Source: Eledone cirrhosa (Eukaryota). From it: a stretch of DNA of 64,000 nucleotides. The notes under the pieces are model-generated. The model searched no databases. It had not been told where the DNA came from and saw only the letters and a program-made list of their open reading frames with translations. This document shows positions 7,841-55,622 of this stretch, in pieces (within the stretch, counting starts at the first letter, position 1; every line of letters starts with the position of its first letter). Location: NCBI GenBank assembly GCA_964016885.1, contig OZ024740.1:199764001-199828000 (forward strand), read 5' to 3'. Both the position numbers and the translations under genes were made by a program.

Positions 7841-9150
7841 ACAATATTAAATAAATGGAAAACTATATTTATTTCATTATATATATTTCGGGGATATCAT
7901 ATTAACAATATGCTATGCCTTCATCAGACAAAGTACAATATAAACAGTTTTATAGATAAATAGATTCGACATACCGTAATAAACATCGACTTCATTTGAA
8001 GAGGTTTACGCTAGCAGTGAAAATTTTATACAGAGAGAAAGAAAGAGAGAAAAAAGATATATTTTCTATATTTTTACTTATTATTATTATTATTGTTATC
8101 TTTTTATTTTTAGTTTTGTTTATAATATAATATATATTTTTTATTAGTATATTGAAATCTGCTCTCTATTTCTGCTTGATAGATAATCTTGTAGAGTAAT
8201 CGCAGGAATAATAATACGCTCAAATTTTTATACCACATTGAGAATGTTTTCCGGTAACTTAGAGTTTGCAGAGTGAATCAGTTGGATTCACATGGATGTT
8301 TGTAGCTGTCACATAAACATATGAATTTTTTAAAACTAAACATAAGATAATGAATTTTCACACATTATGGATACTTGTTTCATTCAGGAATACTGATATT
8401 TACAATATAGTGTAAGTTTTATAAATACTAATACATTAAAACATAGGGTTTTCTACGCCTCGAATATGTCTGGCTATTTTTAAATTTTTCTCTCGCTATT
8501 TTTTTTCCTCTCTCTATATTTTTTTCTCTCTCTATATATCTCCCTTACATTAATACTTGAGCTAAATAAATAAATAAATAAATAAATAAATAAATAAATA
8601 AATGTATCATTGATACACTTACTCAAAATGACCTCCCACTACCTAATTTTCTATATATATATATGTATCTATCTCTATTTCCTCTCTATATATATATATA
8701 TATATCTTTCTGTTTCTTTACATGAAGCCCTTCGCTTTATCTATTTTTCCATCTCTCTATTTTGTTCTATGCATTTCTTCTTTTTCTTTTTTCTTCTTTT
8801 TCTTCCTTTTCTTCGTTTTGTCTTTCTTTCTTTTTTCTCTCTTTCTTTCTCTCTGTATAACATTTTCACTGCTAGCGTAAACCTCTTCAAATGAAGTCGA
8901 TGTTTATTACGGTATGTCGAATCTATTTATCTATAAAACTGTTTATATTGTATTTTGTCTGATGAAGGCATAGCATATTGTTAATATGATATCCCCGAAA
9001 TATATATAATGAAATAAATATGGTTTTATAAATATAGTTTTCCATTTATTTAATATTGTAAATATACTCCAAATATTTGTCTAGTGCTTTTATATCAGTT
9101 ATAAATATTTACTAGTTGTAACCCAACAATTTTAAATATAACTTTACATG
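7841..9150 (+). mobile_element. Fold-back element with inverted arms 7841-8025 and 8863-9059, one HHR in each arm
   Basis: Arms are reverse complements. The + HHR at 8951-9016 reads ttttgt-CTGATGA-aggcatagcatatt.gtt.aatatgatatcccc-GAAA-tatata-TA-atgaaa. The - copy is at ~7870-7935. Flanked by (TA)n. Confidence 0.75.
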
Positions 9151-9191
9151 TATATATATATATATATATATATATATATATATATATATAT

Positions 9192-9468
9192 AGATAGAAA
9201 AAAAGATGAAATCGAAAATGCAACTGGCGTCTTATTTTTTTTTTAAATATATATATTTATTTGGTTCCTTTACCGTTTTCGCAGTTCTTCTACTTTTGAA
9301 AAGCAGAAGAACTGCGAAACCAGAAAAGGAACCAAATAAATATATATATATATATTTTTAAATAAGACTCCAGTTGCATTTTCGATTTCATCTGTCCTTC
9401 TTTATATTTTCACTCGTGTAGGACACGTCGGTTATTTTTCATTTCGTAAAAAAAACCTCACTTTCTAA
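9192..9468 (+). mobile_element. Small fold-back element centred near 9298 with a variant HHR-like core; another copy at 53048-53280 on the minus strand
   Basis: ~100-bp inverted arms plus a ~65-nt one-sided tail. The 53 kb copy reads ctt-TTGAAAA-gcag.aagaa.ctgc-GAAA-ccgg-TA-aag. Confidence 0.6.
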
Positions 9469-10352
9469 TATATATATATATATATATATATATATATATA
9501 TATATATATATATATATATATATATATATATATATATATATATGGACATATATCCATATATATATATATCATTTATTTTGTTTGACCTGTTTGGCTTGAC
9601 TTGTCTTTTGGCTTAGGTGGTTAAGGCTCTTTTGACCACTTTTCAGTTTCTATGGCGTTTTAACATATTGTTTAGCTCTAGTTTTTCTTAACTATTGGAG
9701 CGCTTGCCATTATTTCTACAACTTTGCGTTTCATTTCACTTTTTCTACCAGCCGAAATACGATTCTCGCTGAATATATATTCATATATATATATATATAT
9801 ATATATATATATATATATATATATATTGTTATATTTGGGGAGGGTCATATTTGCGTAATATTGCCAGAATTAATAACAGAACACACTCACTGTTTGGTTG
9901 GTTTTCGCTTCTCGCTGTCTTTTATATATATATATCTGCGATCTAACTTACTCGGTCCTCAATGTTGCCATTGACTGACCGGCGGTCAAAAATAATACAG
10001 ATACAATATAGACAAACACATATATATATAGTTTACATAATTTACATAAATCTTTCGTTGCACATCTGCAACATCGTCAGTGGTGTTATATTCATTGTTC
10101 CTCCTGTTGTGTTGTATGTCTACGCCATTTTTTTTGTTCAGTCTGTCTATATATTTATTTATTTATTTGCTTGTTTGTTTATCTTATTTTATTTTGTCTT
10201 CTTTGCGCATGCGTTTGCGTGTGTGTATAGTGTTATGTGTGATGTGTGACTAGTGTGTATAGTGTTGTGTCTGCTGGGTGACTAGTGTGTGTTTATGTGC
10301 CCGTGCATGCATCTATCTATCCCATTTTACCCCATCCAATTTACCCATCTAT

Positions 10353-53299: not shown

Positions 53300-54133
53300 T
53301 ACTGAAGTAAAAGTTAAGTGTAAATATGCAACATTAAGAGCACTGAGTACATAGGACGAGTTTAGTATAGACAATTACAACAGTGACATAAACAGGTACT
53401 CATGTTTCGTTGGGTTCTGTGCCCTAACTCATTCAACCTGTCGTGAGAAAAATAAAAACAAAGATGGCCACCTAGGCTTGATTGTGTTTTCCTTTTAGGA
53501 ATATAAAATAAGAGTTTACGCAGGGACTTGTAATACAGAAAAAGTTTAGAAGAAAGTTTTTTTTTAAAATTATAGGGTAATAGTGAGCGAGGTAACACTT
53601 GAAAGACCGCAATCAATTTTGAATAAGATAGAAGCACAATAATGTCTTCTAGTTGAATAAAAAAAATGCAATTTCACCGAATTACAATATAGTCAGTAAA
53701 TCAAATTACACACCTAGACCTGTTAATCAGGCCTAAGCCATTTATCTATCCAGCCGCGAAACAATTGAACCGTGTGTTGTGGCAGTGCGTATCTGCAGAT
53801 AATTATGAGAGTGTCCACCATTTTTCAGAATTACAAAGCCGAACAAATTTTGGCATATTTACGTAGACGGTAGATGTTTCCAAAATCAGCCATTTGAGGT
53901 AAAAGGTCTTGCCGTTGTTCTTAAGGCCCCATACGTGGTTTGCAAACTGGGTGGTATGTTTTTTGTCGGGATATCTGAATGTTGTTTCGTGATTCAGGTA
54001 CCGTTATATTCCTAAAAGGAAAGCACAATCAACCCTAGGCGGACATCTTAGTTTTTTTATTTTTCTCATGATAGGATGAAAAATTTGGGGCCCAGAACCC
54101 AACGAAGCTTGAGTACCTGTTAAATGTCACTGT
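53300..54133 (-). mobile_element. Old 5'-truncated PLE: GIY-YIG C-terminal fragment, 3' region, and an inverted copy of its 3' end at 54004-54133
   Basis: Manual minus-strand translation of ~54003-53810 gives RYLNHETTFRYPDKKHTTQFANHVWGLKNNGKTFYLKWLILE..RLCNSEK, homologous to the endonuclease in ORF 61825..62745. 53378-53505 is mirrored at 54004-54133. Relic HHR cagg-TTGAATGA..GAAA-catgag-TA-cctg. Confidence 0.75.
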
Positions 54134-54305
54134 CGTAATTATATATATATATATATATATATATATATATATATATATATATATATATATATATATATAT
54201 ATAAGTATTAAGTTGTTAAACAATATTCGATGATTATGTCAAAAAATGAGTTTTACAGTGGATTGGAAGCACTCAACGGTAATTTAATTTTCAGGAGTTA
54301 TTAAT

Positions 54306-55622
54306 ATATAAGTATTAATAAAATAGATGTTCTTTTGATCAATTACATTTTATTATACATATTTCGGATGTACAACAGTACGTCCTCATCAGACAAAATA
54401 TAATGATACATGACATACCCTGAGATGTGAAATGGTTAAGATTTAATCAAGGTAGTGATTACCCGATCGAAAATTTTACTTATATAATAACTGTGTGAGA
54501 GTGCGAAAACGTAATGATTAATTAGAGAGTGTGTGAGTAAGAAAAATATATACTTCTATATACATGATTCAAATAAAGAGGAAATATCCAAGCTAAAAAT
54601 TATTATAGACATTATTTTGAACATTATACATGCACTCATTATTCGTTTTTCTTATATGTATATATATATTTAAATGTAACACGTTGTTAAGAGTATAACT
54701 GCTATCATTTACCTAAAGTATAATACATTAATAATACTTAATATATATCTATATATATATACATCCCTATATGTAATAATATGTTGATATCTTGGTTGAA
54801 GAATAATTAGTACATTTACACCCAATTATACTTATGTATTTTATCCGTAACATATTATTTTATTTTATTTTATTTTTATTTTTGTCGGTATTATTTACCT
54901 TATACATACTGACTCATTAATATATACCTATATACATAATAGTTATTCATATATTTATGACAATAAGTACTTCAAAAGCTTTACATACCTAATATGTTGA
55001 GATATTTGTTAAAGTTTAGATTTAGGTAATTAATCAACAGTATAATATTTCATTCTTTACGTGCCAGCTAAATCCTTTAAAATGTTATTCTCACAATTCA
55101 GAAGTTTAGAAATGATATATGATATATATAAATAATATATAGATAAATAGCAAAATATCCTGAAATCTGGAGTCTTCACATTAATATTATAAATTAAATA
55201 TTTTCAAAGTCTAACTTCTTAACTTTCGACCCCCCCCCCGCTCCCACACTTTACTTTTCCCTCCTTATAAATCTTTTTCCATTGGCTATCATTGGCTGTT
55301 ATGATTCATGAGACGTTTCCCTAGATATATTATATTGTAGTATCATACAATTTACAACGTTAGAACACTTTAAGTATGCAACGTTTTTTCTTACTCACAC
55401 ACACTCTAAAGAATTCATTACGTTTTCGCACTCTCAGACAGATATTATATAAGCAAAATTTTCTATCGGGTAATCACTACCTTGATTAAATCTTAACCAT
55501 TTAACATCTCAGGGTATGTCATGTATCATTATATTTTGTCTGATGAGGACGTACTGTTGTACATCCGAAATATGTATAATAAAATGTAATTGATCAAAAG
55601 AACATCTATTTTATTAATACTT
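54306..55622 (+). mobile_element. Fold-back element (arms 54306-54545 and 55385-55622) with a canonical HHR in each arm
   Basis: 55531-55587 reads atattttgt-CTGATGA-ggacgtac.tgtt.gtacatcc-GAAA-tatgta-TA-ataaaatgt. The - copy is at 54345-54401. Confidence 0.8.

Follow-up and report, generated by a model that had tools for sequence, protein, structure and literature searches.

Head-to-head insertions with a one-sided tail in Eledone cirrhosa are consistent with twin priming of Penelope-like elements on a single RNA

How does a mobile element come to be inserted as two head-to-head copies of its own 3' part, of which only one carries a tail? The question is raised by a 64,000-nucleotide stretch of DNA (hereafter the window; positions 199764001-199828000 of contig OZ024740.1) from Eledone cirrhosa, an animal whose 3.0-Gb genome is rich in (TA)n, where an initial annotation had listed 15 sites with inverted arms. 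We found the arms at all 15 coordinates, which are given here relative to the first letter of the window. Treating the sites as one class proved right for 14 of them, which belong to dispersed families that include Penelope-like elements (PLEs); the fifteenth, at 18362, matches only its own two arms genome-wide and has no hammerhead ribozyme (HHR). The insertions probably arose by twin priming on one RNA, with a start site at each border of the tail, followed by microhomology joining, a reading drawn from genomic sequence.

Wherever an HHR or an HHR remnant is recognisable, its sense points outward in both arms, as had been claimed. Intact cores are present in both arms at 7841, 9823, 40512, 42882, and 54306, one intact core or degenerate cores at 9192, 30261, 39088, 51143, and 53300, and the 3' half only at 15595, 25214, and 51497, while no HHR motif was found in the arms of 12968 and 18362. 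The motif scripts used to locate HHRs gave 14 strict cores in the window and 0-1 in each of five shuffles serving as a chance control. Across all fetched loci, counted after de-duplication, 56 of the 57 opposite-strand HHR pairs are head-to-head; 41 of these pairs come from three families that we searched for, and the remainder are head-to-head by 15 to 1. Adjacency to (TA)n was seen at both outer ends of most sites but is one-sided or short at 30261, 40512, 51143, and 18362. Measured relative to other family members, the tails range from 26 to 168 nt rather than the 35-90 nt first noted: 26-31 nt at 42882, 41-43 nt at 9823 (also 56-59 nt elsewhere in the same family), 56 nt in the 40512 family, about 62 nt at 9192, 66 nt at 51143, about 78-80 nt at 15595, 25214, and 51497, about 86-90 nt at 7841, about 96 nt at 53300, about 100-104 nt at 54306, 161 nt at 39088, and 168 nt at 12968.

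An inverted-repeat scan of 18 arbitrarily placed 10-kb stretches of the genome returned 57 rows, 21 of them from one satellite. This leaves 36 rows; in about 20 of them, judged by eye, one arm lies at (TA)n while its partner either stops 25-330 nt short of it or has (TA)n out of reach, and the head-to-head pattern with a one-sided tail is therefore genome-wide. About 20 one-sided pairs per 180 kb of random DNA, judged by eye, would make these insertions a major force in shaping the genome, from which long double-stranded RNA is likely to arise. For annotation, this means that many apparent miniature inverted-repeat transposable elements and hairpins in this genome are PLE ends.

The copy at 9823 allows the arrangement to be read in detail. 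Its tailless arm (9823-10969, - strand) has the short outer end, E0, at 9823 adjoining (TA)n and an HHR core at 10053-10080. The tailed arm (10970-12952, + strand) holds a 5'-truncated reverse transcriptase (RT) and GIY-YIG open reading frame (ORF) running to 12379, an HHR core at 12652-12679, E0 at 12909, and the tail at 12910-12952, and the inner junction between the arms shows 2 nt of microhomology. The family has a 4136-nt monomer, partial tandems, 5' truncation, and tails ending at +43 or +58. One copy, L313, retains a 1130-aa open frame with YVDD and VVY...YIGET motifs identified by eye, and judged by its predicted protein the family is an endonuclease-containing (EN+) PLE, with a single ORF encoding RT together with a GIY-YIG endonuclease at the C terminus. 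A CTNRKCIIC linker, two Cys inside the GIY-YIG core, and two His motifs agree with the CX2-5CxxC linker and CCHH pattern and make the family Neptune- or Nematis-like in its sequence; the HHR has its core and stem II, with stems I and III looking degenerate. The L313 ORF also contains a long asparagine-rich stretch N-terminal of the RT, reminiscent of the N-rich inserts that rotifer Penelope elements have (PMC3846280). At 18281-18360, two pieces of about 27 nt resembling the ends of this family face each other over a short (TA)n.

The outer ends of the insertions are fixed, and they pair strictly. Genome-wide, exact ends of the 9823 family number 1601 at the short position, 778 at +43, and 1113 at +58, a short-to-long ratio of about 1:1.2. 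We sampled the first 79 of the 1601 listed short ends and the window copy, 80 in total, and found a partner arm for 54 of them (47 by BLAST and seven read by hand). One of these partners ran off the fetched DNA; the 53 that were resolved all have their ends between +43 and +59, with the short end seen in 0/53. At 50 loci anchored on tailed ends of the same family, every partner seen whole ends short, although many were cut off and several loci overlap the first sample. One short end is likewise paired with one long end in 13 of 13 copies of the 7841 family (one mis-paired row dropped), 10 of 10 of the 54306 family, 15 of 16 of the 9192 family (after removal of four spurious internal rows), all 11 of the 311-nt arrays that could be resolved among 15, 11 of 11 of the 593-nt family, and 29 of 29 of the palindromic family, so that 142 of the 143 resolved two-armed copies in the seven families show the pairing. 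The family samples are best-scoring or first-listed copies and thus non-random. Together with the orientation of the HHR pairs, this pairing speaks against random orientation and tail asymmetry. TA-like sequence, 1-8 nt long and continuing into (TA)n, is present at all ten template ends listed, as we would expect if cut DNA ends pair with the RNA there. Any target-site duplication is masked by (TA)n, and both of the two empty-site comparisons show a pre-existing TA run.

Do the two arms derive from the same RNA? Within an insertion, the arms differ at 0-3 positions per 590 nt, compared with means of 2.8-6.6 between loci and 22 for the window copy. The window copy of the 9823 family further carries 19 A-to-G changes among the 42 A of a 66-nt segment, identical in both arms (10301-10365 in the tailless arm, which has one extra and thus 20, and 12367-12431 in the tailed arm). 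A 35-nt piece of the pattern, searched genome-wide at ≤2 mismatches, has no match outside these two places, and reads from a relative have A at all 13 of the edited sites shown. Clusters of this kind are the trace left by A-to-I hyper-editing of RNA, and the window copy probably represents a hyper-edited RNA that was copied back into germ-line DNA. The privacy of the cluster and its presence in both arms point to one template molecule, and the changes, which read as A-to-G on the sense strand, suggest a sense template and argue against an antisense one. The two cDNAs of an insertion thus likely come from a single sense RNA molecule.

The inner ends of the arms bear on how that RNA was copied. 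The initial annotation had taken the shorter, inverted arm to be the tailless one; this does not hold. At 54306 it is the short arm that bears the tail, and of 54 copies in the 9823 family, 30 reach deeper with the tailless arm and 17 with the tailed one, while seven have arms of equal depth. In 46 of the 54 copies the arms overlap, and in the other eight the partner consists of the tail only (8-43 nt), with zero overlap. A plain hairpin copy cannot extend beyond its template, and deeper tailless arms and non-overlapping arms are therefore not such copies. Inner-junction insertions of 1-27 nt occur in 14 of 47 copies, and the insertion-free junctions (n = 33) have on average 2.0 nt of microhomology, compared with 0.63 nt in simulated joins; in 10,000 resamples, the observed mean was never reached. 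In the palindromic family, the 6-nt loop between the arms points one way in 16 of 28 copies, is flipped in nine, and altered in three; both directions occur in each of three subfamilies, whose markers are mirrored in both arms, and exact genome-wide matches number 5 and 8 for the two directions. The presence of both favors twin priming, which predicts both, over snap-back of a single cDNA, which predicts one. The inner ends of the 9823 family also cluster, nine of 79 falling between -320 and -301, where an A-run lies about 55 nt upstream of the HHR core; this may mark an RNA start or an RT stall.

A mechanism can be proposed that would give all these features. The PLE enzyme would cut both strands within (TA)n, and both 3' ends would copy one sense RNA from two fixed start sites. 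An RT/GIY-YIG enzyme, possibly dimeric, would hold the RNA, with each ...TA-3' DNA end pairing with a UA/AU patch at one tail border, so that each DNA end has its own start site. The cDNA started downstream would displace the one started upstream, allowing both to cover the same region, and host microhomology-mediated end joining would then unite the two cDNA 3' ends before fill-in. Retrozyme-like monomers (311, 453, and 593 nt) and small elements would likely borrow the same enzymes in trans, and a multimeric or circular RNA would give multi-unit arms. In its general form, we are inclined to believe, with some reserve, that single-RNA twin priming is the normal integration route of EN+ PLEs, the tail being the distance between two protein-set priming sites, one per end of a double-strand cut in (TA)n, with a trailing RT displacing the leading cDNA and the same machine inserting retrozyme multimers. 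If true, this would be a third integration logic beside the LTR and LINE routes, legible in hundreds of thousands of genomic copies, and RNA-editing marks would serve as single-molecule barcodes. The core of the initial annotation, that both ends of a cut in (TA)n prime cDNAs that are joined, in coding PLEs and non-coding elements alike, is consistent with every test we ran; what had to be changed is that the tail is not bound to the long arm, that its length range was set too narrowly, and that five of the supposed passengers derive from coding elements.

The same shape could arise from one cDNA alone if, primed at the long end, it folded back and copied itself up to the short end, and if the resulting perfect palindrome later lost its center unevenly. 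Self-annealing of 3' ends is reported, in part of 10.1101/2024.12.14.628481, to yield inverted duplications at L1 sites; private variants are common to both arms; and seven of the 54 copies are perfect fold-backs with equal inner ends, compared with 0.85 expected. We nevertheless regard snap-back as unlikely. It does not foresee the 30 copies whose tailless arm is deeper, the tail-only partners of 8-43 nt, or one copy with arms of 4540 and 84 nt; it requires a fixed loop direction in the palindromic family, where both occur; it leaves unexplained the precise short end at a 4-nt TA match, given a longer TA run about 100 nt away; and RT starts at both tail borders in vitro (PMC11167929). Twin priming on two different RNAs held by an asymmetric dimer would make strand displacement unnecessary, and the PAc protein is predicted to be a dimer (PMC11167929). 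Independent RNAs would, however, give short-short pairs about half the time, which the strict short-long pairing argues against, and later gene conversion between the arms would be needed both for the locus-private cluster of 19 A-to-G changes identical in the two arms and for the arms being nearer to each other than to other copies; we thus consider this improbable. Still less credible is self-priming on an antisense template, as proposed in part of PMC3846280: it accounts for the head-to-head orientation and for palindromes at some junctions, and some families do join at hairpins, but the clustered changes are A-to-G on the sense strand with no T-to-C cluster found, homology at most 9823-family junctions is limited to ~2 nt, at positions that are scattered, and the in vitro activity used sense RNA (PMC11167929). 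Finally, these elements do pile up in (TA)n, and palindromes are a known assembly problem (PMC8557442, in part), which could suggest independent insertions into the same (TA)n or fold-back artefacts of the assembly. Two-armed copies have no (TA)n at the inner junction, though, and neither the short-long pairing nor the 56 head-to-head HHR pairs among 57 fit independent events. An artefact is at odds with arms diverged by up to ~16% or interrupted on one side only, and in Illumina reads from the relative, strand-switch joints with 0-3 nt overlap make up 10 of the 15 shown, weak evidence in that each comes from a single read start; we give this last explanation almost no weight.

Several observations nonetheless count against twin priming on one RNA or temper it. 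No recognisable partner was seen for 26 of the 80 short ends, and two exceptions to the pairing exist: L440 has two short ends, and L449, found by deliberate search, has two tailed ends inside a larger inverted duplication. Both snap-back and run-off from a single RNA end would fit the seven perfect fold-backs and the correlation between arm depths (rho 0.48); private variants common to the arms suit twin priming and snap-back alike; and loop flips can also arise after insertion. The hyper-edited copy is the only one among 252 alignments of the 9823 family, with none in seven other families; outside the cluster, the 12 private changes shared by the arms include only three A-to-G; and a comparison of the 5' neighbors of edited and unedited A found no difference of the kind expected from ADAR preference. 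Initiation by the Poseidon RT occurs without homology to the cut DNA (PMC11167929), compared with the TA match at the template ends here, and we infer the enzymology as a whole from genomic sequence.

The search by eye through coordinate lists for pairs of like ends gave L448, L449, and L450 as candidates. L448 has two short ends separated by 2.8 kb, with unrelated sequence in the interval, and L450 consists of two separate normal copies. The locus of L449, together with L462 and L463 (C1:21326144-21331101), is a fold-back of ~5 kb whose arms run ~600 nt beyond the tailed PLE end into flanking DNA. This is possibly a 3' transduction, and the same could account for the unique duplication at 18362. 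Another locus, L376-L379 (C1:42149466-42150354), holds one small two-armed insertion in four tandem copies, a local amplification after insertion.

Which of the elements are coding? The initial annotation had seen many non-coding passengers, but those at 7841, 39088, 51143, 53300, and 54306 are 5'-truncated ends of coding Hydra-like PLEs. The Hydra clade is defined, in its description in PMC8557442, by RWK-like and DKT motifs, a CxCX5C linker, CxxC and CxH around E/N, a canonical HHR, and a (TA)n target. The 7841 family shows these features, including the canonical HHR and the (TA)n target, its motifs in copy L293 reading RWR, DKT, CNCRDRSKC, CDLC, and CKH. The elements at 39088, 51143, 53300, 54306, and 57226 were assigned as Hydra-like by tblastn only, at 30-79% identity, and longer copies of the first four families have Hydra-like endonuclease sequence upstream. 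Their 3' regions of 1-1.7 kb suggest that the Hydra-like elements are longer than the under-3-kb size of the clade. At 7841-9151, the 3' end of such an element is present head-to-head, with a tailless arm at 7841-8057 (-) and a tailed arm at 8058-9151 (+), the tail spanning ~9061-9150. The insertion at 39086-39899 has a tailless left arm with an internal jump and a right arm with the 161-nt tail, and that at 51146-51487 has its 66-nt tail on the right arm. An older element, at 53270-54147, was resolved by family comparison into a long tailed arm (-) and a short tailless arm (+). At 54204-55628, the short left arm carries the ~100-nt tail (54204-54305) and the long right arm is tailless, with HHR cores at 54362-54392 (-) and 55540-55570 (+). 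A further Hydra-like PLE, absent from the initial annotation, lies at 56837-60325, its left arm consisting of a tail fragment followed by an antisense RT piece and its right arm of an RT-endonuclease ORF and the 3' region to the short end. Another decayed Hydra-like PLE ORF is found at 61825-63962 (-).

Among the non-coding families, the 311-nt and 453-nt ones have tandem units with an HHR core, stems I and II, and a palindromic helix III (CGCG and CUAG, respectively), and by sequence they are non-LTR retrozymes, that is, non-coding tandem monomers with a type I HHR whose helix III is short and palindromic. The 311-nt array at 42874-45951 joins 2.4 units (-) head-to-head with 7.5 units (+), with a type I HHR in each full unit and ends at unit positions 283 and 314. 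An older variant at 30261-31030 has a left arm of 2.2 units with the long end and a broken right arm. The ~453-nt tandem-monomer family, with an intact type I HHR, is represented at 40511-41470 by a left arm with the long end of the family and an atypical right end; no PLE protein match linked to this element was found. The 593-nt tandem-monomer family (12968-13947) has its long end, 168 nt further, on the left arm and its short end on the right arm. Neither strand of its monomer has a CUGANGA-type core, and the family thus lacks the type I HHR; it behaves like the other insertions but is not classed as a retrozyme. Hundreds of candidate copies with the PLE end signature are present, and the family may carry another ribozyme or none. 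The short family at 9192-9468 has a degenerate HHR, a ~62-nt tail on the right arm, and a one-armed copy at 53050-53262 (-); no coding sequence was seen upstream, though no tblastn was made. The palindromic family of ~200 nt is present at 25214-25417 (+) as arm, 6-nt loop, arm, and 78-nt tail, the orientation of the loop relative to the tail differing among copies, at 15595-15778 (-) with the tail at left, and as a diverged copy at 51497-51686 (-), also with the tail at left. When a parent of the 25214 family was sought that is not palindromic and has a complete HHR core ahead of the hairpin, 0 matches were obtained.

The unique local inverted duplication at 18362-19572, with arms 93-94% identical, belongs to no family, has no HHR, and falls outside the rule as far as this is testable. 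Near-perfect hairpins occur at 46622-47010, 49657-49782, and 39972-40127, the first with (TA)n at either flank. A very common repeat resembling short interspersed elements forms inverted pairs, with a microsatellite between the arms, at 6379-6722 and 32060-32843, in an orientation that appears unlike the PLE cases. The segments at 26850-29150, 21697-23595, and 16548-17159 are, from their translations, what we take to be decayed DNA-transposase-like or Helitron-like coding remnants. An Rfam scan of the window gave, among 150 of its 162 matches, only microsatellite-driven, miRNA-like matches below the gathering score and no hammerhead or other ribozyme family, and no Pfam match at 1e-3 was obtained for six window ORFs.

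How do these insertions compare with known systems? Their geometry is shared with LINE-1 twin priming, in which, in the original model, both target ends prime cDNA on one RNA and the products are joined head-to-head at microhomology; the eight non-overlapping copies look just like L1. L1 undergoes twin priming in a minority of cases, with a second site that varies and lies upstream of the first cDNA, and no duplication results. Here, it would account for most insertions; the second site is fixed, overlaps between the arms (46 of 54 copies) usually span hundreds to thousands of bases, and there is no poly(A). The insertions thus share with L1 the head-to-head arms and microhomology junctions, from which the priming itself is deduced, and differ in the duplication, the fixed site, and the absence of poly(A).

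For EN+ PLEs, passages of PMC8557442 and PMC3846280 describe 5'-truncated inverted copies in head-to-head orientation, a tail at one end, partial tandems, and an HHR in the 3' repeat, with (TA)n targets stated for the Naiad and Hydra clades. There, the tail of 30-40 bp is called 'optional' and ascribed to endonuclease resolution, and the inversion is ascribed to antisense self-priming; here, two-armed copies combine one short with one long end, tails of up to 168 nt occur, and the sequence reads as if copied from a single sense RNA. The Poseidon PLE studied in vitro (PMC11167929) resembles our case in that both strands of an AT-rich target are cut and extended and RT starts at the two borders of the tail, whereas the main text does not link the two start sites to two DNA ends or to inverted arms. 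The insertion shape, the tail, and (TA)n targeting are thus already known, at least from these passages of PMC8557442 and PMC3846280, as are two in vitro start sites (PMC11167929). Among titles and abstract openings, a coverage that leaves out most subscription papers, including the 2004-2006 Penelope papers, we found no proposal of twin priming for PLEs or of its extension to retrozymes. The origin of the inverted repeats and tails is named as open in part of PMC8557442, and the steps after first-strand synthesis were left unvalidated in PMC11167929. This genome offers a specific and testable answer, namely one RNA and two fixed start sites, one per DNA end, and twin priming would explain an insertion shape long described and left unexplained.

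Non-LTR retrozymes of animals are, like the 311-nt and 453-nt families, non-coding tandem monomers with a type I HHR, and their dependence on PLEs has been proposed (PMC7229834; 10.64898/2026.07.22.740005, both in part). They are described as plain tandem arrays, with no relevant mention of inversion in the main-text parts of these sources, whereas the arrays found here are head-to-head with the PLE end signature, and their multi-unit arms appear to have been inserted in single events, not amplified locally afterwards. The earlier basis for the use of PLE enzymes by animal retrozymes was co-occurrence and sequence likeness, to which these arrays add direct evidence from insertion sites. Compared with what has been described, the pattern is real and genome-wide; it is an insertion signature whose class is known, and the mechanistic read-out that it offers is unusually sharp.

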